A stretch of 64,000 bases of DNA, taken from Lachnospiraceae bacterium. Its GTDB lineage: Bacteria; Bacillota; Clostridia; Lachnospirales; Lachnospiraceae. A model generated the notes under the pieces. The model was given only the letters and a program-made list of their open reading frames with translations. It searched no databases and was not told the DNA's origin. Location of the stretch: assembly GCA_017622875.1 (NCBI GenBank), contig JAGAQG010000030.1, forward strand, positions 211 to 64,210, read 5' to 3'. Each line of letters begins with the position of its first letter. Within the stretch, counting starts at the first letter, position 1. Shown here piece by piece: positions 1 through 13,157 of this stretch. A program made the position numbers and the translations under genes.

Positions 1-505
1 TTCATGGATATGCGGAGTAGCTTCATCAAGATGTAAAGCCCAGTCCAAAATATGAACATGAGAACCATATCGTTTATTAAATTCCTCAAAGTATTCCGCA
101 CTAATCTGAGCAAGCACATCAGCGGAAACTGTTCCGTCAATGTTGCCAAGCTGTAGCAAAGTTTCTTCCGGACACGTTTTATTATTTTCAAGAATACCGT
201 CAATAGATTTCACTCTGTCATAATGTCTTGCCTTTCTATTTCTTTCGTTCTGCCCGTCTACATGATCTGAATAATTCTCAACATAGTAGGCTTTCTCCAC
301 TTCCGAAAAAGTGAACCTTGCCCTTTCGTTCTCATCATTCGGCAGACTGTAACCCTGATAGCAGTCCCAATAGACATTGAATTTTGTCCTCTCTGCGTCA
401 ATATGCTCACTATTCTCCACATCAAATCTGCGGTCATTATGCTTAGCATCATAAGTCCCATGCTTACCTGATCTTCCATTGTGTCTGGTAGCTTTCATAA
501 CCATC
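1..505 (-). CDS. MobV / Mob_Pre family relaxase, N-terminal part (3' end runs off the window)
   Basis: Own reverse-strand translation from ATG 505 (or 499), preceded by GAAAGGAAAG: MVMKATRHNGRSGKHGTYDAKHNDRRFDVENSEHIDAERTKFN...HILDWALHLDEATPHIHE. It contains HN(D/E)R-like and HxDE..PHxH relaxase motifs. It is absent from the ORF track because it is open at the window edge. Confidence 0.8.
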
Positions 506-584
506 TTTCCTTTCATATTCTGACAAAAAAAGACCAAGTAAATTTCTCTACTCAGTCTGTTAATAGCAACAATATTTAATTATT

Positions 585-790
585 TTCCCGAAGGGAATTG
601 CAACGAAGTTGCCAAAACTTGTGAAGCTCTGCTACAAGTAATACCCAGTACTTAGTGGCGAAACGCCACTAACTGGGCAATGGTTGCACCCTTGACCGGC
701 TAAGGCGCTTCGCCCTTAACCCGAGCGGAGTCTTTCTCCTGCACCTTGCGTAAGGCTCTGCCTTTACAATCCGCCAGAGGTTGCACCTCT
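585..790. other. Hairpin-dense non-coding stretch upstream of mob; candidate oriT (RS_A-like)
   Basis: Stem-loops: TTCCC-GAA-GGGAA (585-597), GCAAC-GAA-GTTGC (600-612), ACTTGT-N11-ACAAGT (617-639), CCCAGTACTTAGTGGCG-AAA-CGCCACTAA-CTGGG (644-677). Direct repeat GGTTGCACC at 682-690 and 779-787. MobV oriT sites normally lie directly upstream of mob. Confidence 0.4.
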
Positions 791-916
791 GTACTCTGCT
801 CCAAAGAAATATATCCCTTCTTAATTCTATTTTTGATATAATCATAACGTCTTGAACGATTCGACAAACTGAAAGTTTCGCGTCTTTGACAAATTGGGAT
901 TTATAGACCTCATCCT

Positions 917-1498
917 TCAAAGGCCAAATGAAGCTACTATTGCTTTTATAATAAATACTACTCCTATTGCTATTGCACACGAAACAAATATTAATGCAAA
1001 TTTTGATATCTTACGATTTTTTCTGGCTTTCTCAATCGCTCCTGTTGTATAAAGCAAAATCGTGATTGGTGTAACAAAAACTAATGTAAGACTGTATGAT
1101 GATAAATACCTTAGCAATGTATGTTTTTCAGGCATTCCCCCAAAATCAAGGATGCAATATATCATCAACGCAATTACACCAATAATACTTTGACTTTGTA
1201 TTTTTTTAATGAGGTTCTCTTTTTCAAAGTCTGCATACGCTGATAATGTTTGTGCAACTTCTTTTACTTCTTCATTCATCTTCTCGTTTTTCCTTTCTCC
1301 ATTCACAATTTCAGGAATACTGATATCATAAAATTCTGCCAACTCAATCAGCAAACTAATGTCTGGCATATTATTTCCCGTCTCCCAACGAGATACCGTC
1401 CTCACTGAAACATTCAATTTCTCTGCAAGCATTTCTTGTGTGATACCTTTTTCTTTTCTAAGATTTTTCAAAAAGTTTCCAATCTTTTTTTGTTCCAT
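917..1498 (-). CDS. XRE-family HTH regulator with C-terminal transmembrane segments
   Basis: MEQKKIGNFLKNLRKEKGITQEMLAEKLNVSVRTVSRWETG is a Cro/C1-type HTH. The C-terminal half has 3-4 hydrophobic helices. RBS AAAGGAGGAAG precedes ATG 1498, so the upstream-extended ORF start at 1516 is rejected. Confidence 0.8.
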   Translation of the reverse strand: MEQKKIGNFLKNLRKEKGITQEMLAEKLNVSVRTVSRWETGNNMPDISLLIELAEFYDISIPEIVNGERKNEKMNEEVKEVAQTLSAYADFEKENLIKKIQSQSIIGVIALMIYCILDFGGMPEKHTLLRYLSSYSLTLVFVTPITILLYTTGAIEKARKNRKISKFALIFVSCAIAIGVVFIIKAIVASFGL

Positions 1499-1675
1499 CT
1501 TGCTTCCTCCTTTCACTTGCAGAATACTCTTTGTTGTTCATATATTACACGACACAAAACGAGAAAAATGCCATATTTAGTAATTAGACAACCTTGTCGG
1601 ATAAAAATATATGAATTTATCAATTCGTAAAATTCAAATCTTCAGTTGCTTCCAAACACTTCATAATCTTGGAAT

Positions 1676-1963
1676 TTATACGTCAGCTCCCATACCTTTG
1701 AGGGTGTTGACAAAACGCTTTCTGTTGAAAAACACCGCAAACTTGTATTCATTTCCATTTCGCATTTTTACCGTGACCGTTGGCAAAATAAAAAGCCACC
1801 CTTTCGTCACTTCACTAATATCTTCGTATTTCAATACTAAATGTCTGTATTCCTGGGATATTGTTAATTTACCTGTATGGTAAGTAATTGCTTCTGAATC
1901 TGCAACAATACCACCACCGAGAATTCCGTGTTTCACTAAACTAACAATAAAGTATTTCTTCAT
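1676..1963 (-). CDS. Small hypothetical protein, bacterial PH/GRAM-like
   Basis: 95-aa ORF from ATG 1963 with RBS GGTGGAGAA upstream. The fold assignment is only a pattern impression (beta-rich, ...GKLTISQEYRHLVLKYEDISEVTKG...). Confidence 0.5.
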   Translation of the reverse strand: MKKYFIVSLVKHGILGGGIVADSEAITYHTGKLTISQEYRHLVLKYEDISEVTKGWLFILPTVTVKMRNGNEYKFAVFFNRKRFVNTLKGMGADV

Positions 1964-2156
1964 GCGTATATTCTCCACCAACTTCCGATTTGTTGTTTTA
2001 AATTATACATCTACTAGCACGGAATATCTACCATTTTCAAAAGAATTTCCAGAACCTTTCCTAGAAATAAAATATATTAGGATACTGTATTGCATAAGCT
2101 CCCGCTTTTTCTCTTCAATTCTGCAACTACTGTACCGTAATAAAATACCATTCATT

Positions 2157-4547
2157 CTAGGCACTCTGTTCATTTTTCTTAGCATGATACGCTTCACGTC
2201 TCTTAGCCAAGGTCTTTTCATATCTCTCTTTTGCAATAGGATCTCCGTTTAATGCATCGTCACGCATTTTCCGATAACTCTTTACTGTGGCTCTAACCTG
2301 ATACTGTTTATGCTCTGCAAGCTGGCTCTGTGCTTCCTGATCTCCGGCTTCTGCCCGAGCCTTCAAAGTTTCTAACTGCTCCTTTCTTCTTGCGGTATGA
2401 CGTCTGTTATAGTCTGCATTTCTCTCTTCAAGATATTTTGCATATTCAGGATCATTTTCTGCTCTTAATTTGCGTTTTTCTGCTGATTTCCTAGAACGCT
2501 CCCTAGCAATAGCCCTACGCTCCTCTAGCTCTCTGATAGCTTCCTGATTGCCTTTCTCTGCCTGCTCCTTTAATTCTGCCAAAGCAACCTTTTTCTTCCT
2601 TGTAGCACGTTCCTGACGCTTCTTTTCCCTTTCCAAAGCCAAGCGTTCTTTCTCTTCCATCTTTGCCCGATATTCAGGGTCAGCCATTCTCAATTTACGC
2701 ATTTTTTCTGCTTGCTTACGATTGTTCTGCCTACCCTTTTCAAGAATTGCTTCATATTCTGCCTTTGCAATAGGATCTCCGGCTTCTGCCTTTGCCTTGA
2801 TTTCTGCTCGCTTCTGATTTCTTTTCTGCGTAGATTTCTTAGAAGAATTTCTCTTTCTTTCTGCAATCTCTTCCGCTCTGCGTGCTTCCTCTAACTGCAA
2901 GGCTTCCACTTCGTCCTCACTGAGTGGGAGAACGAAATTTCCAATGAAATTGAAGTAAATATCCACTTGCTGAGTGCGGTCTTTTGTTCTGCCACCCACA
3001 GCTTCATGAATTACAACCTTTTCAATAAAATCATTAAGCATAGGTGTTGTCAGTTCCTCAAAATCTCGGTATTTCTTGACCAGTCGCACAAATTTGTCAA
3101 TCTGCACTGCCTTAGTGGATATACGTTCTGTAGCAGTTTCAAGTTCTGAAATTCTCTGCTCTAGGTTACTTTGCTCGGTGTCATATTCTGTCATAAGACG
3201 GTTAAACTGTCTCTCAGGCAATCGTCCCAAAGTGAAATTTTCATATAATCCCTTTATCAGATCATCTAAATCTATCATACGACGCTTAGCTTCCAATAAC
3301 TCCCTTTTGTCATTGGTATTGTCCTTTTCACACTGTATTTCATACTGTGCCTTCAACTGTTCCACAAATTCCTTTTCATCATTCAGGACATACTGTGAAA
3401 CACGCTTAGTTGCCTGATAAATCAGCATTTCTACTGTACTTGCCTTAATATAATGACCAGTACATGAATGATATTTATTGTGATACCGGCTACATCGGAA
3501 TGCCTGATTACTGTCATAGGTCTTTCCATCTTTCGACTGAGAATTGATAAATGCCAGTCTGCTTCCACAATCCGCACAATAAAGCATTCCTGACAGCCTA
3601 TGTGTAGGCTTTTCACTGTTCCGTCTCGGAGAAACTCGTTTTCTCATTTTCTGTGCCTTATCATAAGTTTCCTGATCTATGATAGCTTCATGGGTATTAT
3701 AGAAAATAAGCAGCTCGTCCTCATTCACAACTCTTTTTCGTTTCGTCTTAAAACTGTCTTTTGCTGTCTTGCCAAGAATGGTATGCCCCAAATACTCACG
3801 TCTACTCAGAATATAGCCGACTGTTGTTGCATTCCATGTATAAGCATCATGGTATCTCGTACACTGGCAATCCTCAGGGTGGTTCTGTCTCGCATAAGCT
3901 GACGGAATAAGCACTTTATCCTCTGACAAGGTATCTGCTATTGCAGTTGCTCCCATTCCCTCGCAAGCAAGCTGAAAAATGCGTCTGACAACCGAAGCAG
4001 AAACTTCGTCAACATACAAGGTCTGCTTATCCTCAGGCTTTCTGTAATATCCATAAGGAACAGCACCGCTGACACGCTTTCCGTCTCTCATTCTAGCCTT
4101 AAATACTGCCTTGATTTTCTTACTCGTGTCCTTTGCATACCATTCATTCATAATATTCAGGAATGGTGTAAAGTCATTATCTGTAGGATTAGCACTGTCA
4201 ACTCCATTGTTAACTGCGATAAAACGGACACCTTTCTTTGGAAACATCATTTCAGTATAAAAACCTACTTGCAGATAGTTTCTGCCAAATCGTGACATAT
4301 CCTTGACAATCACTGTTCCAACTCTTCCGGCTTCAATCTCTGCCAAAAGTGCATTGAATGCTGGTCTGTTAAAATTTGTTCCTGAATATCCATCATCACT
4401 GAAATGCCGAATATTCTCGAAACCATTTTGTACCGCATAGTCTTCAAGATATTGCTTCTGATTTGTTATGGAGTTCGATTCTCCTTGAATCTCATCATCA
4501 CGAGACAGACGCTCATAAAGTGCTGTTATTCTGTTATCTTTAGCCAT
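2157..4547 (-). CDS. Large serine recombinase (TnpX/TndX-like) with about 250-aa repetitive K/E/R-rich C-terminal tail
   Basis: MAKDNRITALYERLSRDDEIQGESNSITNQKQYLE...VIVKDMSRFGRNY is a resolvase catalytic domain, followed by a recombinase domain and a zinc-ribbon domain (CADCGSRL...CSRY..H.C). RBS AAAGGAG lies 8 nt upstream of ATG 4547. Confidence 0.9.
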   Translation of the reverse strand: MAKDNRITALYERLSRDDEIQGESNSITNQKQYLEDYAVQNGFENIRHFSDDGYSGTNFNRPAFNALLAEIEAGRVGTVIVKDMSRFGRNYLQVGFYTEMMFPKKGVRFIAVNNGVDSANPTDNDFTPFLNIMNEWYAKDTSKKIKAVFKARMRDGKRVSGAVPYGYYRKPEDKQTLYVDEVSASVVRRIFQLACEGMGATAIADTLSEDKVLIPSAYARQNHPEDCQCTRYHDAYTWNATTVGYILSRREYLGHTILGKTAKDSFKTKRKRVVNEDELLIFYNTHEAIIDQETYDKAQKMRKRVSPRRNSEKPTHRLSGMLYCADCGSRLAFINSQSKDGKTYDSNQAFRCSRYHNKYHSCTGHYIKASTVEMLIYQATKRVSQYVLNDEKEFVEQLKAQYEIQCEKDNTNDKRELLEAKRRMIDLDDLIKGLYENFTLGRLPERQFNRLMTEYDTEQSNLEQRISELETATERISTKAVQIDKFVRLVKKYRDFEELTTPMLNDFIEKVVIHEAVGGRTKDRTQQVDIYFNFIGNFVLPLSEDEVEALQLEEARRAEEIAERKRNSSKKSTQKRNQKRAEIKAKAEAGDPIAKAEYEAILEKGRQNNRKQAEKMRKLRMADPEYRAKMEEKERLALEREKKRQERATRKKKVALAELKEQAEKGNQEAIRELEERRAIARERSRKSAEKRKLRAENDPEYAKYLEERNADYNRRHTARRKEQLETLKARAEAGDQEAQSQLAEHKQYQVRATVKSYRKMRDDALNGDPIAKERYEKTLAKRREAYHAKKNEQSA

Positions 4548-4585
4548 TTTCTCAGCTCCTTTCATAATGCTAAAAAATAAGAACA

Positions 4586-4626
4586 CACAGAAAATACTTC
4601 ATTTTTTAATGACATATTTTCTCTGT
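4586..4626. repeat. Imperfect inverted repeat at the recombinase-proximal transposon end
   Basis: CACAGAAAATA ... TATTTTCTCTG, lying between the recombinase start (4547) and the point where T4CP homology ends. Confidence 0.4.
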
Positions 4627-5168
4627 ATTCTTAAAATGTAACCCTTAGGGTCAGTCACAACATAACTGGAGTGCATTTGAAGCAAATTAGGCTTCAGCCA
4701 GAAACGGGTCTTACCGGAGCCGGAGCCGCCGATGATTAAGACGTTCTTGTTTCGGGCATTGGCAGGATTCTTCGGACGATTGGACATCATCAATCTCTCC
4801 GTCTTGGTGAGAATGATATTGTCCTCGAACTTCGGAGCCATGAACGGCTCAATATCCTTTGCCGTACCCCAGCGGGCTGAACCATACTCAACATTGTGTC
4901 GGTACTTTTTGGCGTTCTTTCCTTTAAGGTAGACTGCCAATCGCATCATACCGCCGCAGGCAATACCTACAAGCAGGTCTGATGGATGAAAGCTCGGCAA
5001 CGGATTGGAAAGTGCCACGGAGAAGGTACTAAAAAAGCCGAGGAGCTTTGCAGAAAAATCTGCGCCCTCGGCTAATCGCCACGCTTCACCTAAATTGGTT
5101 GCGAATAATCCCACAAGGAAATATGGGACATTCAGGATCAGGAGTCGTTTTATCTTTTTCTTGTCCAT
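4599..5168 (-). pseudogene. Truncated VirD4/TraG-type type IV coupling protein (first ~176 aa only)
   Basis: N-terminal TM helices, Walker A IIGGSGSGKT and ...SSYVVTDPKG, followed by 13 unrelated codons (YILRIQRKYVIKK) and a stop. Intact homologues are about 600 aa. Confidence 0.8.
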
Positions 5169-5644
5169 TACAGATCACGCTCCTGTTTCTTCTCTCTAAT
5201 TTTCTTCGGAATGGAAGCAACAACAGCTTTGAGCTTCTGAAGCTGTTTGAGTACACTTGGACGTTTTTCCTGATTCATGTGCTTCGCCATGTGTTCCTTG
5301 GTAATAGCGTCCAGAACATCAGCGTCTTTTGCTTTCACGAAGACGAGATAGCGGGGTGGATCTACTGATTTATCTTTCCTTACGGCAAAATCCACTCCGT
5401 ATTTTTTCGCCAATCGCTCAAAATCTTTGATTTCGCTCTTGTCGATTTCGGTGTTGGTAGCACCCTGGTTCTGTCCCAGAAGCTCTTTCACCGTCTGTTT
5501 ACCGTGAGGGCGTGTGTCTTTGTGTGCTTTGACCTTTTCCCGGTGTTGCAAATACTTGCGAATACCGGCGACGATACTTCGGCCTGTCAGCTTGGTCGTG
5601 CTGATGGCAAGATTTATCGTCCTGTTTTCAACTTCTTCCTGCAT
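5168..5644 (-). CDS. DUF3801 / PcfB-like conjugation accessory protein
   Basis: 158 aa with RBS AGGAGGTGA. It sits immediately upstream of, and overlaps, the T4CP start, as is typical in Firmicutes ICEs. The family was recalled from sequence pattern only. Confidence 0.65.
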   Translation of the reverse strand: MQEEVENRTINLAISTTKLTGRSIVAGIRKYLQHREKVKAHKDTRPHGKQTVKELLGQNQGATNTEIDKSEIKDFERLAKKYGVDFAVRKDKSVDPPRYLVFVKAKDADVLDAITKEHMAKHMNQEKRPSVLKQLQKLKAVVASIPKKIREKKQERDL

Positions 5645-5677
5645 GAATCATCACCTCCTGCAAGCAGTAGAATGAAA

Positions 5678-5989
5678 TCATCGTGCTGTATCCTTACGGT
5701 CGTAGTAAAGGTTGCCCTTTCCAACAGCAGCATGGCTGATAATCTTAATGTGACCGGCTTTCTGGTTTTCCAGAGCTTTCTTATACCCGAAATCACTCAG
5801 ATACAGGCGTGTTCTTTCGCCCTTCCATCCAACAGGGGAATCATGGGTCAGAACATCAAAAATAATCATGTGCTTTGTGTTTTCGTCAAAACGAGCCAAG
5901 TCCATATAGGTGTGTCCATGGTATTCCTTTGCACCGGCTTTCAGGCGCATTTCTTCCATCAACTCACCAATCGTTTTTCCACCAGCCAT
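5678..5989 (-). CDS. Hypothetical ICE protein (103 aa)
   Basis: ATG 5989 is preceded by AAGGTGG. It overlaps the upstream stop by 11 nt (coupled). No recognisable motif. Confidence 0.5.
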   Translation of the reverse strand: MAGGKTIGELMEEMRLKAGAKEYHGHTYMDLARFDENTKHMIIFDVLTHDSPVGWKGERTRLYLSDFGYKKALENQKAGHIKIISHAAVGKGNLYYDRKDTAR

Positions 5990-5999
5990 AGATGCCACC

Positions 6000-6641
6000 T
6001 TACAGCACATCCCTGTCAGGAGCAGACTTCTTGGGAGTCATATCTGCTTTTTCAGGAGCATCAGGCTTCTTCACTCGGTCATCGGGTACAGGCAGAGCCA
6101 TAAGGCTGCGTCCCATCTTCACGAACATTTCGGGCTGATGGAACATCTTCTCGAACTTCTGCATCTGTTCAGGTGTAAGCGAACCAAAGTCATCCTCTGT
6201 CAGACCGGTAATAAGAAAATCACCAGCGAGAATGTCGTAGATCTGACCTTCATCATCACGCAGACAACGGTTCAATTCACTGCCGTTGAGCTTACCTTCC
6301 TCGTTGCAGATAATCGCAACAGGGTCTTCAAACGGATACACAGCCTGAATGCAGCCACCGACAGCAGCCTGCAAGTCCTCTAACTCACAGCCAATCTGTA
6401 CCTGCTGGGGATACATACCGGGCTTCACCAGAAGAACATCCATAGTAGGTTTCTGTTCCTGCTGGATGTCACGTTCTGCCTGTGTGGTGAACTGAACACC
6501 GGTAAAGTTCTCAGCGTCCAGGACATGCTCCGAGTTGTAATAAGCCTTTTTGACTGCTTCTTCAGCGTCCTCACGAGATTCTGCATCCACCTTCACATTC
6601 TTTTCCAACGTTTCGGTGATTGTAACGTCATACTCTTTCAT
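6000..6641 (-). CDS. DpnD/PcfM-like N-terminal domain fused to a DUF3846 domain
   Basis: MKEYDVTITETLEKNVKVDAESREDAEEAVKKAYYNSEHVLDAENF... followed by LLVKPGMYPQQVQIGCELEDLQAAVGGCIQAVYPF. RBS GGAGG. The family was recalled, not searched. Confidence 0.6.
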   Translation of the reverse strand: MKEYDVTITETLEKNVKVDAESREDAEEAVKKAYYNSEHVLDAENFTGVQFTTQAERDIQQEQKPTMDVLLVKPGMYPQQVQIGCELEDLQAAVGGCIQAVYPFEDPVAIICNEEGKLNGSELNRCLRDDEGQIYDILAGDFLITGLTEDDFGSLTPEQMQKFEKMFHQPEMFVKMGRSLMALPVPDDRVKKPDAPEKADMTPKKSAPDRDVL

Positions 6642-6659
6642 GTTATCAAACCTCCAATC

Positions 6660-7589
6660 TTAAATATTTTCAAAAAGCCAGTTCGTCAGAATATCAAAAG
6701 TTTCTTCTGAACCGCCGCTTTTTTCTTCATGGAGCAGATCATGCCTTGCACCGGAAATCAGATACATCTGAATGTGCTTCATTCCTGCTTTTGACATGGA
6801 CTGCTTTACTCGCTGAACGCCTTTACCGAAGTCTCCGACAGGATCATCTTCGCCAGAAATCAAAAGAACGGGCATCTGCTTGTTCCACTTGCGGTAGGAA
6901 GCAGGCTTGCCCGTTCTTTTCATAGAGTCCAGCAACTGCCAGAACAGACCTGCGGAAATGGTCTTTCGACAGAGAGGATCACCTCGGTATTTGATTCTCT
7001 GTGCGGTGTCAGAGCAGAGCCAGTCGACAGAAGTCATATTGGGGGCGAACTTCTGATTGTAGGTCTCAAAAGACAACTTTTTGATTTTCTGTGTGGAACT
7101 ATCAAAGCCATGTGCCTTGATTTCTCGTTTCACAACAGGCATCAGCATACTTAGGACGGCCCCAGGCTGATGACCAGTTCCCATGATGATTGCTCCATCC
7201 ACCTTATCACGATACAGACTCAGGTAATCACGAAGCAGAAAGGAACCAAGCGAAAATCCTAACATGAAATGCGGGATATTAGGGAACTTGCTTTCCAGTT
7301 CCAAATAGAACAGGTGCATATCGTGAAGTGCGTAGTTCCAACCGCCCTCACCAAAAGATGCACACTGATTATCGCCGGGATTGTGACCATGCCCACGCAG
7401 ATCAAAACCGGCAACGGCAATGCCGTAGGCAGTCAACATATCTGCCAGTTCTTCATAACGTCCGATGTGTTCTGTCATGCCATGCGTTATCTGTACAACC
7501 ATTGTGGGACTGCACATCGGATACCAGATGATGCCGGGAAGGGAAACTCCGTTGGCACCGGTAAATCGAATTTCTTTAGCTTTCATCAT
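6660..7589 (-). CDS. Alpha/beta hydrolase (lysophospholipase / monoacylglycerol-lipase-like), ICE cargo
   Basis: HGMTEHIGRYEELADML..GFDLRGHGHN, nucleophile elbow GFSLGS, C-terminal GARHDL. RBS GGAGAAG precedes ATGATG at 7589. Confidence 0.8.
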   Translation of the reverse strand: MMKAKEIRFTGANGVSLPGIIWYPMCSPTMVVQITHGMTEHIGRYEELADMLTAYGIAVAGFDLRGHGHNPGDNQCASFGEGGWNYALHDMHLFYLELESKFPNIPHFMLGFSLGSFLLRDYLSLYRDKVDGAIIMGTGHQPGAVLSMLMPVVKREIKAHGFDSSTQKIKKLSFETYNQKFAPNMTSVDWLCSDTAQRIKYRGDPLCRKTISAGLFWQLLDSMKRTGKPASYRKWNKQMPVLLISGEDDPVGDFGKGVQRVKQSMSKAGMKHIQMYLISGARHDLLHEEKSGGSEETFDILTNWLFENI

Positions 7590-7634
7590 AACTTCTCCAT
7601 GCCTTGAAATGAAAAAAGCGACCATCCATAAGCC

Positions 7635-8159
7635 TTACGGCTCACAAACAGTCGCACGATTAAGTAGCTGAGCGAACATACAAGTATCATCCAGTGCGCA
7701 GATCAAATCTTCAGGCTCGAAGAAAACATCCTCCTCGGTTCGGATGGTCTTTACATGGCGGCGATACTCTGTAATGCAATCTGCATCCTCACCGTTCTTG
7801 GTCATCGTTCCCGCATACTGAACGATTGCGAAAGTCATGTCCTCCAGGAACCACAGCTCCGTGAAAGTAACTGTGCGCATCCGCTCATTTTCGATGATGC
7901 TTTCAGGATAAGATAGGAGAATCACGCCCCTGTGCTTGAAAAGCACTCTGCCGTTGTAGTCGATACCATCACCGACACGACACACCATACGGAACTCAGG
8001 AATCGTGCCGGCATTTTCGGTGAATGCCTTTGCCAGCCACTTGGGGGAGATGTCCTCGATTTCTTCATCATAGTTTTCATACAGATTCTCCATGACCTCT
8101 GCATCAAACAGGTCAAAGAGTTTCACCAGCGCATTTTCGATTTTCTTGGGTGTAAACAT
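7635..8159 (-). CDS. Acidic hypothetical protein (174 aa)
   Basis: My count is about 34 D+E against about 18 K+R. No recognisable domain. It is coupled within the ICE operon between parB and the hydrolase. Confidence 0.6.
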   Translation of the reverse strand: MFTPKKIENALVKLFDLFDAEVMENLYENYDEEIEDISPKWLAKAFTENAGTIPEFRMVCRVGDGIDYNGRVLFKHRGVILLSYPESIIENERMRTVTFTELWFLEDMTFAIVQYAGTMTKNGEDADCITEYRRHVKTIRTEEDVFFEPEDLICALDDTCMFAQLLNRATVCEP

Positions 8160-8170
8160 TGGGTGTTACC

Positions 8171-9088
8171 TTACCTTTCCATACTTCTCTCACGTTTTTT
8201 CTGCCATTGTTCAAGCAGCTGAATGATTTTATCCTCCATCTGCTTGCTGGTGTAAGATTTCGGGAAGTATTTTCTAAGTGAATCTGTTTTGAAAGTAACT
8301 CGGTCGAGTTCGCCCTTCTTTATTTCATTCATAATTTCACACATCGCATCAAGGGTACATTCACCGGACTGTGCCAGTTTCTTGATACGCTGTGCCTGGG
8401 AGAGAGAAGGGGCAGCCTGAGCATAATCCATAGCTTCCAGAAAGTCTTTCTGTTCTTCTCTTGCGAGATAGGAAAGCTCAACAGCGGGATTAAACTTAAT
8501 CTGTCCGTTATCGACCATATCCAGTAATTCGGGGATAAGCTCAGTCAGTCGGATATAGCGACGAACCGTGTCACCGCTAATACCTTCTTTCTGTCCAACC
8601 TCATCATCACTTCTCGACTTCGCCGCAAGTTGCGGCGAAGTTGTTTTGCCCTGATGCTTGATAGCATCCATCTTCATGCGATAGGCAAAAGCACGTTCAC
8701 TTGGCAGAAGCGTTTCTCTCTGCAAGTTGGAATCGACCATCAAGATGATTGCCGCATCATCATCCAGATCACGGACAATAACCGGCATGGTCTCTTTGCC
8801 CGCAAGCTCAGACGCATGGTGTCGCCTGTGACCGGAGATAATCTCATAGCCGCCATAGGGGTCAGGGCGAACAATAGCAGGTGTCAGAACGCCGTATTCC
8901 TTGACGCTCTCAACGGTTTTCGCCATCTCCTCATCGTCCACAACTCGGAAGGGGTGTCCCTCAAATGGATGGAGTTCAGAAAGAGGAATTTCCTGCACTC
9001 GCTCCTGTTGGGCTTCAGCTCTGCTTTCCTCCGTGGAGAAAAGATCATCGTACCCCTTCAAGTTGATGTTTGCGCCTTTTTTCGGCAT
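8171..9088 (-). CDS. parB: ParB/Spo0J-like partition protein (ParB N-terminal nuclease-like domain)
   Basis: PLSELHPFEGHPFRV...YGVLTPAIVRP...YEIISGHRRHHASELAG. RBS AAAGGAGGTG. Confidence 0.85.
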   Translation of the reverse strand: MPKKGANINLKGYDDLFSTEESRAEAQQERVQEIPLSELHPFEGHPFRVVDDEEMAKTVESVKEYGVLTPAIVRPDPYGGYEIISGHRRHHASELAGKETMPVIVRDLDDDAAIILMVDSNLQRETLLPSERAFAYRMKMDAIKHQGKTTSPQLAAKSRSDDEVGQKEGISGDTVRRYIRLTELIPELLDMVDNGQIKFNPAVELSYLAREEQKDFLEAMDYAQAAPSLSQAQRIKKLAQSGECTLDAMCEIMNEIKKGELDRVTFKTDSLRKYFPKSYTSKQMEDKIIQLLEQWQKKRERSMER

Positions 9089-9875
9089 TGTTTAACACCT
9101 CCTTTGTCAAAACACGATAAGCGTCTGCCACTTTACCTTTCGGATCGTGCTTGAAAATACTGGTTCCCTCGGCACTTATTTCTTCCGCACGGACAGAACG
9201 AGGGATGTCCGTCTTGTAGACCTTTAGCTTGCCACCGTAGCTCTCACGAATCAGGTTACTGATGTCCTTTGCGTAGTTGGTTCTGCTGTCTACCATCGTC
9301 AGAAGAATACCTTCGATTTTCAGCTTCGGATTAATTTGACGACGAACCTTGTTGATGGTCTGCAAAAGCTGTTCCAAGCCCTTTGCGGGAAGGTACTGTG
9401 CCTGCACCGGAATAAGAACGGTATCCGCAGCAGCAAGAGCATTCACGGTCAGCATACCCAGAGAGGGCATACAGTCCAGAAGAATGAAGTCATAGCTCTG
9501 CTTTACCGTATCCAGGTACTGACGGAGAATGGTCTCTCGGCTCATAGCGTTTACCAGAGATACCTCAAGACCGGAAAGCTCGATGTTGGAAGGCATCAGG
9601 TCGATGCCTTCAGGATGATGCAGGATACCTTCGCCCGGTTCAATGGGCTTTTCCATCATAACCTTTGCCATCATGTCAGAAAGCGTTGTGGGCAGTTCAT
9701 CGGGAACAGGATAACCAAGGCTGATTGTCAGCGATGCCTGCGGGTCTGTGTCTACGACCAGAACCTTTTTGCCCTCCATCGCCAAGCCGACACCAAGGTT
9801 TTCCGTGGTAGTTGTCTTGCCGGTACCGCCTTTCTGATTAACCACAGCCATGACGGTTGCTTTCTTTGCCACCAT
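9045..9875 (-). CDS. parA: ParA/Soj family ATPase
   Basis: Deviant Walker A VVNQKGGTGKTTTTENLG. It overlaps parB by 44 nt. Confidence 0.9.
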   Translation of the reverse strand: MVAKKATVMAVVNQKGGTGKTTTTENLGVGLAMEGKKVLVVDTDPQASLTISLGYPVPDELPTTLSDMMAKVMMEKPIEPGEGILHHPEGIDLMPSNIELSGLEVSLVNAMSRETILRQYLDTVKQSYDFILLDCMPSLGMLTVNALAAADTVLIPVQAQYLPAKGLEQLLQTINKVRRQINPKLKIEGILLTMVDSRTNYAKDISNLIRESYGGKLKVYKTDIPRSVRAEEISAEGTSIFKHDPKGKVADAYRVLTKEVLNNAEKRRKHQLEGVR

Positions 9876-9921
9876 TCATCACCTCGACTTTCTTATTGGG
9901 TTTCAAGTTTTATCACTCCTT

Positions 9922-10824
9922 TCAACGAAAAAAGCCCTCTGACATATCGTGACTTACCTTTGCTGTGTAGAAAGGGTCGATAGTAAGAGGGGCATTATAT
10001 ATCGCAGCAAGCAGATACTGCTTGACGTTGCGAACATCAGTTTTGTTTTCTTTGAAGCAGTCAATAACGAAACAGATATGGTCTGATTCCAACTTCATAA
10101 ATCTGCTTTTTACAATTTCAGCTGGCTTATCATCACTGGCGATACGAATCAGCTTGCGTCTGGTACATACTGTTTCAACGATCAAGTCCAAAATGGAATT
10201 AAGCAGATTGTGGTCGTATGGATACCTGGACAGCAGAATATCAAATTCAAGCTGTTCTCTGAAATAATCGTAATATTGTTTCCATTCTCCATTCCCTTCG
10301 GTTCCTTTTCCACAAAAACCGGAAGATAGGAAAGGATCAGTATCACTATAATCAGTATAATTAGTATCAGTATTATTTCCTCGTAGTTTTCCCGACTCCA
10401 CAATCGGGGTTTGTCCGACTCCAGAATCGTGATTTTCCCGACTCTTGAATCGTGATTCCACAATACTATCCACACCACTGACAAAGTTCTTCACATAGAT
10501 CAGGTTGGGTTTTCCAAGTCCCTGTCTTTTGCGTTCAATCAGGCCGCATTTCTTTTCCAATTCGTTATAGAGCTTCGTGGCCTTGTTATCACCACAGTTC
10601 AGCGCAGCCATCGTTTCTTCCAATGTGAATATGATATAGACACGACCGGCAGCATCCATCCAGCCGTTCCGGGCTGACAGATTCATGCGGTCAAGCAATA
10701 TACCATAGAGCAACTTTGCGTCGGTAGACACGTTCCAGAAACGATCATCGGTAAACAGCATCTTCGGTATTTTGTAAAAGGAGAACTGTTCTGCCTGCTG
10801 ACCGTAGAAATAATCAAATTCCAT
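9922..10824 (-). CDS. RepA_N-family replication initiator
   Basis: MEFDYFYGQQAEQFSFYKIPKMLFTDDRFWNVSTDAKLLYGILLDRMNLSARNGW.D..GRVYIIFT is a typical RepA_N N-terminus. RBS GGGAGGTGA. Confidence 0.75.
   Translation of the reverse strand: MEFDYFYGQQAEQFSFYKIPKMLFTDDRFWNVSTDAKLLYGILLDRMNLSARNGWMDAAGRVYIIFTLEETMAALNCGDNKATKLYNELEKKCGLIERKRQGLGKPNLIYVKNFVSGVDSIVESRFKSRENHDSGVGQTPIVESGKLRGNNTDTNYTDYSDTDPFLSSGFCGKGTEGNGEWKQYYDYFREQLEFDILLSRYPYDHNLLNSILDLIVETVCTRRKLIRIASDDKPAEIVKSRFMKLESDHICFVIDCFKENKTDVRNVKQYLLAAIYNAPLTIDPFYTAKVSHDMSEGFFR
10387..10466. repeat. 3.5 direct repeats of 23 bp inside the rep gene (candidate iterons / oriV)
   Basis: TTTTCCCGACTCCACAATCGGGG / TTTGTCCGACTCCAGAATCGTGA / TTTTCCCGACTCTTGAATCGTGA / TTCCACAATAC, starting at 10387, 10410, 10433 and 10456. 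Confidence 0.6.
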
Positions 10825-11056
10825 TTTTGCTCACCTCCCTCGGATGGAAGGGGTCGCTGACCAGAGGAGATTCCCTCAGTGTGCAGCCCTTGATTGCATA
10901 AGGACAACACACATAGTAACAGCTTCGATATTTCCACTTTGGCTGATGGAACTCACATTCTTTGCAGCTTCGTGGAGTCGTTCGCTTGGAGATCCGAGAG
11001 CCAGGAGCTTTTCTCAGTGTCCTTTCCATGGACTGAAATTTTTTGTCCTCACTCAT
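10814..11056 (-). CDS. Cysteine-rich small protein (Cys_rich_KTR-like)
   Basis: MSEDKKFQSMERTL...CKECEFHQPKWKYRSCYYVCCPYAIKGC. Its ATG overlaps the upstream stop (ATGA). Confidence 0.55.
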   Translation of the reverse strand: MSEDKKFQSMERTLRKAPGSRISKRTTPRSCKECEFHQPKWKYRSCYYVCCPYAIKGCTLRESPLVSDPFHPREVSKNGI

Positions 11057-11057
11057 A

Positions 11058-11282
11058 TTATCGGATGCCAAGCTCTCGCAGAATTTTCTTCGTACACCAC
11101 CCAATACAAGGGTGATCCCGCCCATAGGGACAGCCATCGCATTCTGACTGAACCTTTGGTGCTTCACGAATCAGGTAATAGCAATTACCTTTGCCCAGAC
11201 TGCAGCCCGACCATATTCCTTTCCAGAAATAGCACTTGCTGCATTCGCTTGGCTTGTCTGGAGCATACATTTCCTCTTGCAC
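11058..11282 (-). CDS. Cysteine-rich small protein (Cys_rich_VLP-like)
   Basis: GTG start 7 nt after GGAGG. ...CSKCYFW...GCSLGKGNCYY...CDGCPYGRDHPCIGWC. Proteins like this typically form the first gene pair of this ICE type. Confidence 0.6.
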   Translation of the reverse strand: MQEEMYAPDKPSECSKCYFWKGIWSGCSLGKGNCYYLIREAPKVQSECDGCPYGRDHPCIGWCTKKILRELGIR

Positions 11283-11328
11283 ATCCTAACCTCCAATCCT
11301 CAAATTTTTTCCGAGATGTTCGGAAATG

Positions 11329-11375
11329 AAAAAAGAGCGCTTACTCATCCCTCGAAAGGGGCGAATAAACGCTCT
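11329..11375 (-). terminator. Intrinsic-terminator-like hairpin about 50 nt upstream of the first ICE gene
   Basis: Minus strand: AGAGCG-(inner CCCT-TTCG-AGGG)-CGCTCT followed by TTTTTTC. A second hairpin, TTCCGA-N5-TCGGAA, lies at 11309-11325. Confidence 0.5.
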
Positions 11376-11444
11376 ATGTAAACACGATAATATTCAGTTT
11401 TATTTCCTATAACGTCGTAGCACTCAAAACATCCGCCTTTTGCA

Positions 11445-11540
11445 ATTAGCAAAAATTTTAGCCCGATTTTGGGGCTGATTAGCAGGAGGGGCATTTTCAT
11501 TAGCAAAAACAGCCCGTTTTCTGCTAAAAATTAGCTGGCG
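11445..11540. repeat. Cluster of TTAGCA/TTAGCT motifs, including two copies of a longer direct repeat
   Basis: ATTAGCAAAAA..AGCCCG(A)TTTT occurs twice (from 11445 and from about 11498). Also GATTAGCAGG, inverted TGCTAA (11522-11527) and TTAGCTGGCG (11531-11540). Confidence 0.5.
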
Positions 11541-11649
11541 ATTTTGTCTTATGACAGTAGTTCGATATTTTTTGGCGTGCAAAGAGTGACTCTCTAAGGT
11601 AAACTGTTCATTAAAAACAAACTAATTGACATTGCTATGTTTAGGTATG

Positions 11650-11687
11650 AAAAAAGCCGAAAACCCTTGAAAACAAAGGCTTTCGGC
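11650..11687 (-). terminator. Rho-independent terminator of tRNA-Arg
   Basis: Minus strand: GCCGAAAGCC-N12-GGTTTTCGGC followed by TTTTTT, 10 nt after the tRNA 3' end. Confidence 0.75.
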
Positions 11688-11696
11688 GTTGTTAGC

Positions 11697-11773
11697 TGGC
11701 GTCGCAAAAGGGACTTGAACCCCCGACCCCACGCTTAGGAGGCGTGTGCTCTATCCAACTGAGCTATTGCGAC
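11697..11773 (-). tRNA. tRNA-Arg(CCT): tRNA-Arg, anticodon CCT, CCA encoded
   Basis: Cloverleaf folded by hand: acceptor GTCGCAA/TTGCGAC, anticodon stem CACGC/GCGTG, loop CTCCTAA, T-loop TTCAAGT, 3' GCCA. Confidence 0.95.
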
Positions 11774-12134
11774 ATGGCTAATTTATATGATTAAGCCCGA
11801 AGAAACTCGAACTTGAATCCTGTATGAAGTTTTTGAGAGGTGAGCGTTGTAACGCCACCTTAGGAGGCCCTTATTATATCCATTTAACTAAGAGGACTTT
11901 TGCCTGCCTATTATAACATTTGTTCTTATATAAAATCAATAGTCATAAATATCTACTCTACATTATCAAATTAGACATTGCCGAGTATAAAAAATGCACA
12001 TAACAAATTGTTAAATTTTTACAAAAAAATAATAAAATATGTTTTTTTACTGTAAATTATTTATTTAATATTGAAGTTTAACTTCATATGTGCTAGAATT
12101 CAATGTAGCAAAACTAAGTAAAGGAGAGATTGAA

Positions 12135-13157
12135 ATGAAGAAATTAAACATTGCTGTTGTTGGTGCAGGTATTTATGGAAAAAACCATTTAGATGCATTT
12201 AGCACCAACCCAAATGTAAATCTTGTTGCAGTTTGTGATCTGAACAAAGAAATCACAGATCGGGTTTCTAAGGAATATGGAGTCAAAGGCTACAATGATA
12301 CAGAAGAAATGTTATTAAATGAAGACATTGATGCGGTAGTTGTAGCAACACCTGATCCTTATCACAAAGATCCAGTGATGACAGCGATTAAGTTTAAAAA
12401 AGATGTTTTGGTCGAAAAACCTCTGGCAACTACATCAGAAGATGCCTATGAAATTATTGAGGCTGCTGAAAAAGCAGGGGTTCGTGTTATGGTTGATTAT
12501 CATAAGCGTTGGGATCCGGCATCAATCGCAGTAAAGAACAAGCTTGCTAGTCCTGAAACAGGAAAACCAGTTCGTGGTTACATGAAAATGGATAATATTT
12601 ATGATGTAGCGCTTAACTGGTTGAAATGGTCCGGTAAATCCAGTCCGGTACATTTTGTAGGAACACATTGTTATGATCTTATTCGCTGGTACATGGGATG
12701 CGAAGTTACACAGGTATATGCGGTAGGACATAAAGGAATCCTTCAGTCAAAAGGTGTTGATACTTACGATAGTATTACAGCAATTTTGGAATTTGAAAAT
12801 GGATGTACATGGACAGTGGAAAATGCATGGATTATTCCAAATGGTTTCGCAAAAGCTGATGATGGACGTACAGAAATCTTATGTGAAAACGAAATGATTC
12901 GAGTAGATTCCCAGAAGCGAGGAGTAGAATTTTTTAATGATAATAAATTGTCAACGCCAAATATCTGCTTTATTCAAAGATATGAAGGAAGAGTATTAGG
13001 ATTTGGTATTGATCCAATGAATGATTTTGTTGACTGTATTTTAAATTACAAGCCATTTATGGCAAACTTGAAAGATGGGCTGGAAGCAGAACTGATTGCT
13101 GAAGCAGTACATAAGAGTGCAGATACTCATCAAGTTGTAAAAATTGAAAGAAGATAA
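12135..13157 (+). CDS. Gfo/Idh/MocA family oxidoreductase
   Basis: MKKLNIAVVGAGIYGKNH Rossmann N-terminus plus the EKPLA motif. RBS AAAGGAGAG. Confidence 0.85.
   Translation: MKKLNIAVVGAGIYGKNHLDAFSTNPNVNLVAVCDLNKEITDRVSKEYGVKGYNDTEEMLLNEDIDAVVVATPDPYHKDPVMTAIKFKKDVLVEKPLATTSEDAYEIIEAAEKAGVRVMVDYHKRWDPASIAVKNKLASPETGKPVRGYMKMDNIYDVALNWLKWSGKSSPVHFVGTHCYDLIRWYMGCEVTQVYAVGHKGILQSKGVDTYDSITAILEFENGCTWTVENAWIIPNGFAKADDGRTEILCENEMIRVDSQKRGVEFFNDNKLSTPNICFIQRYEGRVLGFGIDPMNDFVDCILNYKPFMANLKDGLEAELIAEAVHKSADTHQVVKIERR

Follow-up and report, generated by a model that had tools for sequence, protein, structure and literature searches.

A probable integrative and mobilizable element within the VirD4-type gene of a Tn1549-type conjugative element in a Lachnospiraceae genome

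In a 64,000-nucleotide stretch of DNA from a Lachnospiraceae bacterium (here called the window; positions 211 to 64210 of contig C14, with 210 bp of the contig lying to its left), an open reading frame (ORF) for a VirD4-type coupling protein breaks off early, and a gene for a large serine recombinase begins just beyond it on the same strand. What interrupted the coupling-protein gene, and could the interruption be undone? A sequence-only reading of this locus had proposed that a mobilizable transposon sits inside the coupling-protein gene of an integrative and conjugative element (ICE). We examined the window, the rest of its source assembly (69 contigs, 87.7% complete), and related loci from genome records and metagenomes. 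We consider it very likely that window positions 1 to 4641 hold the left part of an integrative and mobilizable element (IME) that inserted site-specifically into the VirD4-type gene of a Tn1549-type ICE and that would pass through a cycle of excision and mobilization.

The interrupted gene and the adjoining recombinase

The ORF at 4599-5168 (minus strand) encodes 189 residues, with two hydrophobic N-terminal segments, a Walker A motif (GGSGSGKT), and a segment ending in VVTDPKG. The sequence-only reading had divided it into about 176 residues of coupling protein, 13 unrelated codons, and a stop, a division that translation, Pfam, and full-length homologues all bear out. Codons 1 to 176 (4641-5168, minus) form the 5' fragment of a CD1115-family coupling-protein gene of the host ICE, as delimited by tblastn, by the end of nucleotide homology, and by comparison of left and right attachment sites (attL and attR); the 13-codon tail reads YILRIQRKYVIKK. 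The Pfam T4SS-DNA_transf match is confined to residues 138 to 176. Thousands of relatives are found among longer proteins, the closest of which are 583 residues long, are 98-99% identical to the fragment across their first 179 residues, and carry TrwB_AAD_bind, T4SS-DNA_transf, and TraG-D_C domains. When one such intact homologue (P0002, 583 residues) was compared with the window by tblastn, the match covered its residues 1 to 179 at 98.9% identity. One intact homologue scored 566 bits against NCBIfam model NF045973 ("VirD4-like conjugal transfer protein, CD1115 family"); the ATPase domain needs residues 117 to 548 of that model, and the 189-residue fragment is missing most of this domain.

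Alignment to intact CD1115-family genes, which the sequence-only reading had suggested as a way to locate the breakpoint, put the break at the GG of the Gly176 codon. The window and the intact genes part after ...GAC CCT AAG GG, and nucleotide homology to two metagenome loci with an intact coupling-protein gene of the 583-residue type (L003 and L004) ends at 4642. Past the breakpoint, the intact genes continue with C AGT ATC GTC..., and the window continues with T TAC ATT TTA AGA ATA CAG AGA.... This break places the first base of foreign DNA, as read from the alignment, at the third base of the Gly176 codon (T, position 4641), about 20 residues past the Walker A motif. The GG of the same codon (4643-4642) would then be the crossover dinucleotide. 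With intact homologues that are 98-99% identical and nucleotide homology that ends within codon 176, the proposal that a mobilizable element lies inside the ICE coupling-protein gene is upheld.

The recombinase gene (2157-4547, minus; 796 residues) starts at ATG 4547, which is 51 bp past the stop of the 189-residue ORF on the same strand and 93 bp inside the left end of the element, with a good ribosome-binding site, GAAAGGAG, ahead of it. The sequence-only reading had seen this gene at a distance of about 50 bp, and the translated protein contains four Pfam domains that agree with its call of a large serine recombinase (Resolvase, Recombinase, Zn_ribbon_recom, and DUF4368), together with a catalytic-type motif, YERLSRDD, near the N terminus. 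Copies that are 96-97% identical occur in isolates and in metagenome-assembled genomes. The likeness to TnpX is judged from this domain set, which fits and includes DUF4368, rather than from a direct comparison with the TnpX sequence; a tblastn search of plasmids returned only unnamed recombinases of at most 51% identity, with no annotated TnpX among the matches. Assignment to CcrB or XisF was rejected, since the scores fell far below the NCBIfam cut-offs for both. The C-terminal tail of the protein, about 250 residues (2157-2920, minus), consists almost only of K, E, R, and A and contains internal repeats. On two Kurthia plasmids (NZ_CP147848.1 and NZ_CP126690.1), genes for 43%-identical recombinases lie directly beside an annotated [quoted passage not shown] and the same targeting may also occur in plasmid-borne coupling-protein genes.

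The left, recombinase-proximal end of the element (4599-4640, minus) is a half-site derived from attP. It supplies the 13 foreign codons and the stop, and the same end is present in three related loci (L005, L017, and L019). Within it lie a -10-like TACATT (4640-4635) and one arm of an inverted repeat, AATACAGAGA (4629-4620); the right ends of the three related loci carry the complementary arm, TCTCTGTATT, together with TTGACA.

Attachment sites, target-site reuse, and a split promoter

We assembled 80 loci with relatives of the recombinase from genome records (49-98% protein identity), 11 of which hold both ends of the element. The sequence-only reading had expected the remainder of the coupling-protein gene beyond the far end of the insertion. 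In these relatives, which carry the same or related recombinases, the gene does resume downstream, from residue 172 onward, after elements of 3.5-11.8 kb. All 11 loci share the core CCNAARGG, with GG at both ends. The attL pattern is CCN AAG GGy followed by TAnnnT..., and the attR pattern is ...TTGAC(A/G)-N11-CCN AAA GGn followed by coupling-protein codon 177 onward. In the lineage of the window (L005, L017, L019, and the window itself), the Lys codon is AAG at attL, where it is ICE derived, and AAA at attR, where it is element derived; at the third position of the Gly codon, attL invariably has an element-derived T, and attR has an ICE-derived base that varies. Since these two positions change origin on either side of the GG, the comparison indicates that the exchange must lie in this non-palindromic 2-bp core. 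Large serine recombinases use non-palindromic 2-bp cores. Ten-base inverted arms, TCTCTGTATT and AATACAGAGA, flank the core. Excision simulated at the GG reopened the coupling-protein frame in all five loci tested (489-615 residues), with ...TDPKG-T... at the joint in L025, L026, L033, and L065; in L032 the frame (523 residues) was cut only by the end of the locus.

The target codon is reused across many lineages. Among the 59 loci that include the recombinase N terminus and at least 400 bp upstream of it, 51 have a coupling-protein fragment that ends at residues 174 to 194, less than 200 bp before the recombinase gene and on the same strand. Recombinases 96-97% identical to that of the window lie inside coupling-protein genes that are only 54-70% identical to the interrupted gene (L005, L009, and L017), and the two identities can diverge in either direction (96% for the recombinase versus 54% for the coupling protein in L009; 55% versus 88% in L067). 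Because the identities are uncoupled, the sequences speak for independent, repeated site-specific insertions and not for one ancient insertion inherited with the ICE. Of the eight exceptions, seven imitate the core, six with AARGG or a one-base variant (L010:9850-10001, L015, L037, L043, L048, and L076) and one loosely with CAAGG (L035); the eighth, L054, has no core-like sequence. The first six have no coupling-protein gene ahead of the recombinase, and an example of such a site reads GACCAAGCCAAAGGG followed by TTAGATT. By their sequences, these sites look like secondary integration sites with an AARGG-like core.

Public protein data hold many clusters of 176 to 202 residues that end a few codons past TDPKG with differing tails (YTWRG, YNNIGQRK..., and YILRIQRK...). 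A second set of truncated proteins, of about 323 residues, ends in ...KLAAG-DICSK. For annotation, truncated "VirD4" ORFs of 176-202 and about 323 residues in metagenomes are best taken as attL junctions and not as genes. There is also a second hot spot in the same coupling-protein gene: in L017 (17845-20287), and likewise in L005 and L019, the gene resumes at residue 172 and stops again at about residue 318. At that point in L017 there is a second DUF4368 serine recombinase of 629 residues, which is 41% identical to the first and has no K/E/R/A-rich tail. The truncated proteins of about 323 residues mark this same hot spot, which is probably the published "traG site 2."

The two ends of the element each carry half of a promoter. 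In all 11 two-ended loci, joining the ends into a circle would place TTGAC(A/G), a spacer of 17 nt (18 nt in two loci), and TAnnnT directly before the recombinase gene. Of 55 attL junctions, 46 have TAnnnT immediately after the Gly codon, and the window has its TACATT there. In the integrated state, the -35 position is taken by coupling-protein codons unlike TTGACA, and a simple consensus scan of the minus strand from the coupling-protein fragment to the recombinase gene turned up nothing resembling a promoter or a terminator. The copy in the window holds the -10 half only, and its joint promoter, which we predict from the relatives, is probably assembled in the same way. The predicted right end of this copy is ...TTGACAAAACGCTTCC(G/T)AAAGG followed by coupling-protein codon 177 onward, the predicted empty site is ...CCTAAGGGN-AGT/ACN..., and the predicted circle joint is TTGACA-17 nt-TACATT. 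Lyras and Rood (2000), as cited in PMC13023037, refer in their title to a joint promoter of Tn4451. As far as could be established, no published description exists of a conserved split-promoter architecture for these elements.

Mobilization genes and a proposed excision cycle

Downstream of the recombinase, the element carries the 5' part of a gene for a distant MobV-type relaxase (1-498, minus), of which 236 of about 407 codons are on the contig and 166 are within the window. ATG 498 was taken as the start in preference to TTG 537, which was rejected, and the ORF leaves the contig 210 bp beyond the window. Its product is 99% identical to residues 1 to 236 of a 407-residue protein of L017. A phmmer search of PDB sequences gave no meaningful match, and NCBIfam has no family for this protein or for the small ORFs of the element. 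The protein belongs to a family of 2213 representative clusters (E ≤ 0.001), and Mob_Pre was matched by 27 of 39 aligned family members (E ≤ 0.01; best, 2.7e-9). The best match of the family profile in the PDB was MobM (4lvi): KHNDR aligns with KHNER of MobM, which contains the catalytic histidine, and HLDEATPHIH aligns with HLDESTPHMH. In an AlphaFold2 model (predicted local distance difference test score, 88), the six best Foldseek matches were all MobM (probability, 1.00; TM-score by target, 0.57-0.64). The profile and the predicted fold identify the ORF as a distant MobV relaxase with a MobM-like fold, in keeping with the sequence-only reading, which had noted a MobV relaxase leaving the window. 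A second MobV-like relaxase homologue (46-49% identity) lies near a contig end elsewhere in the assembly (C15:39322-40517), with no recombinase of this family adjoining it; it is split over two reading frames, by either a frameshift or a sequencing error.

The non-coding stretch ahead of the relaxase gene (520-776, minus) is a candidate origin of transfer (oriT). Folded as single-stranded DNA, positions 520-800 (minus) reach -52.5 kcal/mol (z = -5.3), and none of 200 shuffled sequences folded as well, in agreement with the hairpin-dense spacer that the sequence-only reading had described before the relaxase gene. The stretch is kept together with the relaxase gene in L005, L017, L019, and L024, where homology resumes at 776. 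An Rfam search of window positions 1-12200 found no family in the hairpin region and returned only a tRNA-Arg and one chance-level match. The location and fold of these roughly 250 bp upstream of the relaxase gene fit an oriT, as a candidate with no nick site located. Between the candidate oriT and the relaxase start lies a 12-pair AT-rich hairpin with a T-run (531-558, minus), which was the sole minus-strand terminator-like site in a scan of positions 1-5700.

We propose the following cycle for this element. While integrated, the recombinase gene would have no promoter of its own and would be readable only by run-through from the co-oriented ICE operon upstream. The recombinase would then excise the element as a circle by a conservative 2-bp exchange that rebuilds an intact coupling-protein gene, and the same exchange would join the right-end -35 box to the left-end -10 box, so that the recombinase gene gains a strong promoter. 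Once the relaxase had nicked oriT, the circle would be mobilized through the now functional ICE pore and would re-integrate at the same motif in an ICE that is resident or was transferred along with it. It is possible that this nesting is a regulated two-way switch and not damage, a reading that we advance tentatively. ICE induction would bring about run-through, followed by excision of the element, repair of the coupling-protein gene, and transfer of both elements. The basis for this suggestion is that recombinases as far apart as 50% identity use the same Gly codon of TDPKG and are co-oriented with the transfer operon of the ICE, that their integrated genes appear to have no promoter of their own, and that they share a split promoter whose -35 and -10 boxes would come together only in the circle. 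An earlier proposal holds that IMEs excise when the ICE is induced and that the conjugation module is thereby restored (PMC5357655, PMC5704250).

Several points weigh against the proposed cycle. The 3' part of the coupling-protein gene was sought in the whole 69-contig assembly (Pfam PF02534 and tblastn with an intact homologue), and only the fragment in the window was found. The assembly likewise yielded no attR, so that the completeness and excisability of this copy cannot be demonstrated from it, and the contig ends before the relaxase gene is complete. For both the window protein and its full-length twin, the Pfam Mob_Pre (PF01076) score is 19.1-22.5 bits, below the gathering score of 25.5. 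The idea that the integrated recombinase gene would be read by run-through draws on the absence of consensus signals in a simple scan. Two published systems also point the other way. Tn6103, a CTn5-like ICE of Clostridioides difficile R20291, carries Tn6104 and Tn6105 inside one ORF, and the composite failed to transfer in the laboratory (Brouwer et al., PMC3158075). In Streptococcus suis, no excision of ICE-hosted IMEs was seen in the laboratory, and decayed copies were reportedly numerous (PMC7168690). Given these two observations, permanent inactivation is possible, and the design of the disruption is compatible with reversibility.

The alternative that best survives follows from the same observations: the insertion is real, yet the nested pair has decayed, so that the element no longer excises and both the coupling-protein gene and ICE transfer are permanently inactivated. 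The far end is indeed absent from the assembly, and a search of all contigs for the rest of the element (the CHC2, VapE-like, and TnpW-like proteins found in L017) found none. However, all visible genes are intact and have the lengths seen in intact loci, and the attL half-site equals that of two-ended relatives. Moreover, the presence of nearly identical recombinases in coupling-protein genes that are far less alike implies recent activity of the lineage. We regard such a dead end as unlikely. A chimeric contig, in which assembly or binning fused an ICE fragment to an unrelated metagenome element, might be suspected from the fragmented and incomplete assembly, from a contig that ends within the relaxase gene, and from the absence of the rest of both elements. 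The same junction nevertheless recurs to the base in dozens of independent records, cultured isolates among them (Oribacterium sp., Roseburia hominis An869, and Blautia sp.), and in many of the 176- to 202-residue truncated entries of public data, and we rejected a chimera as highly improbable. Least credible is a natural short paralogue, which the many database proteins of 176-202 residues with the same N-terminal part might suggest, and it was rejected because their tails past TDPKG differ and are element derived, because nucleotide homology with intact genes stops within a codon, and because the fragment is missing most of its ATPase domain.

Known relatives, cargo, and the host element

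The reading that we prefer, a site-specific IME in a Tn1549-type ICE, has close published parallels. In Tn5252-superfamily ICEs, serine-integrase IMEs are catalogued from maff2, from snf2, and from two sites within traG (virD4) (Coluzzi et al. and Guédon et al.; PMC5357655, PMC5704250). IME_Sco1050_traG_site1 and site2 are serine-integrase IMEs in the VirD4 gene of Tn5252-superfamily/Tn1549-family ICEs (PMC5357655, PMC5704250), further IMEs lie in the "Tn1549_traG" of S. suis (PMC7168690), and IME_..._traG elements have been named in Faecalibacterium and R. hominis (PMC12084326). Excision has been demonstrated for Tn6104, which has a 2-bp repeat and whose serine recombinase is related to TnpX (PMC3158075). 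Like the IME_traG elements and Tn6104, the element in the window has one large TnpX-like serine recombinase at one end and its own relaxase. It likewise lies at a fixed internal site of an ICE coupling-protein gene, with very short repeats in its two-ended relatives, a likeness judged from published descriptions. The complete relative L017 also has no genes for a type IV secretion system (T4SS), the window element itself leaving the contig. The published hosts and the intact relatives of the window's ICE share the gene order pcfB-virD4-maff2-virB6-virB3-virB4, and like the IME_traG elements, the relatives use two sites in the gene, here with the second at about residue 318. Unlike Tn6104, which is 15.6 kb long, has two-component, ABC-transporter, and sigma-factor genes, and encodes a mobA/mobL-type relaxase, the element studied here has an XRE regulator and a small ORF of unknown family as cargo and a distant MobV.

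The sequence-only reading had assigned the element to the Tn4451/Tn4453 type, and part of that assignment stands. A terminal large serine recombinase with a DUF4368 region and a MobV-type Mob protein with an oriT upstream (here a candidate) are shared. So is a TnpW-like small ORF at the far end of complete relatives (L017; 24.6 bits, cut-off 25), as are a predicted 2-bp crossover and, probably, a recombinase promoter assembled across the circle joint (here predicted). The target does not agree: Tn4451 uses GA and numerous sites (PMC5704250, Table 1), whereas the relatives studied here use GG in CCNAARGG, are specific to the coupling-protein gene, with 51 of 59 at the same codon, and have a few look-alike secondary sites. 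In addition, no catP, TnpV, or TnpY was found, and complete relatives add CHC2 zinc-finger and VapE-like proteins. Because the GA core and the low target specificity of Tn4451 are absent here, the element is better filed with IME_traG/Tn6104-type elements than with the strict Tn4451 family. A broader parallel, drawn by Coluzzi et al. (PMC5357655), is with split genes that depend on excision, among them skin/sigK and SPbeta/spsM, and with the serine-recombinase "regulatory switches" of prophages; in these, a gene interrupted by an element is rebuilt when the element excises precisely. Unlike skin/sigK and SPbeta/spsM, the interrupted gene here belongs to another mobile element and not to the host, and regulated excision is hypothetical.

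The locus adds a further case to a type of nesting known from gut and oral Firmicutes and is nothing new in kind. What may be new lies in the comparison: a single codon, a single orientation, and a split promoter are common to recombinases with as little as 50% identity. Such nested elements shape how genes move among gut Firmicutes, and a guest that splits the DNA-export gene of its carrier either blocks the carrier or makes the carrier's transfer depend on excision of the guest. One reused codon, a GG core, a split promoter, and a second hot spot at about residue 318 sharpen the published switch hypothesis into a testable form.

Between the recombinase gene and the candidate oriT is a variable cargo slot of 1.3 kb (777-2088, minus), whose flanks are kept in L005, L017, L019, and L024 and whose content is replaced there; in L017, it holds an unknown ORF and a methyltransferase. 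The window has a small ORF of unknown family (1676-1963, minus) and a gene for a 193-residue XRE-type helix-turn-helix regulator with hydrophobic C-terminal segments (917-1498, minus; HTH_3, E = 8e-19). The sequence-only reading had listed the XRE regulator and then a PH-like ORF after the recombinase. Both ORFs are present, and their order is the reverse, with the small ORF first; it has no Pfam or NCBIfam match, and the PH-like label finds no support. Beyond the relaxase gene, L017 continues with genes for a CHC2 zinc-finger protein, a VapE-like protein, and the TnpW-like ORF.

All inserted-element and ICE genes (about 1-11167) are on the minus strand, and the ICE genes are co-oriented with the coupling-protein gene. 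The visible part of the host ICE, a Tn1549-type backbone (5168-11696, minus), was identified by Pfam and by 93% nucleotide identity and equal gene lengths relative to the intact loci L003 and L004, which align with window positions 4642-11868 and have the same gene order. From 11167 to 5168, this order is RepA_N/DUF6017, ParA, ParB, an unknown 174-residue ORF, an alpha/beta hydrolase, DpnD-PcfM/DUF3846, DUF5720, and DUF3801 (PcfB-like). Beyond the coupling-protein gene, L003 and L004 continue with maff2, TrbL_2 (VirB6-like), PrgI (VirB3-like), a VirB4-like ATPase, NlpC/P60, and DUF4315. Of the Tn1549-type module pcfB (DUF3801)-virD4-maff2-virB6 (TrbL_2)-virB3 (PrgI)-virB4, the window holds only DUF3801 and the virD4 fragment, and L003 and L004 have the full order, which agrees with the Tn1549-family conjugation module that Table 3 of PMC12084326 gives for ICEs of Faecalibacterium. 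A search of the whole assembly for the remaining ICE genes found only a divergent T4SS set on contig C18 and an NlpC fragment on contig C46. These Tn1549-type genes (C18:137-6388 and C46:2-577; a maff2 fragment, TrbL_2, PrgI, VirB4-like, and NlpC/P60) are 42-67% identical to those of the intact ICE relatives and belong either to a second ICE or to a mosaic continuation of the ICE in the window, to which they cannot be assigned.

The sequence-only reading had also taken spot GC counts as a sign of three differing regions. Mean GC is 0.387 for positions 1-4641, 0.466 for 4642-11868, and 0.398 for the remainder of the window, against 0.404 for the genome. The ICE backbone does differ and is the only part that stands out by GC; the inserted element is chromosome-like and cannot be distinguished from the chromosome by this measure. 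At the border between the ICE and the chromosome lies the tRNA-Arg gene (anticodon CCT; 11697-11773, minus). Since homology to the intact ICE loci runs through this gene up to 11868, the ICE probably abuts the 3' end of the tRNA-Arg gene.

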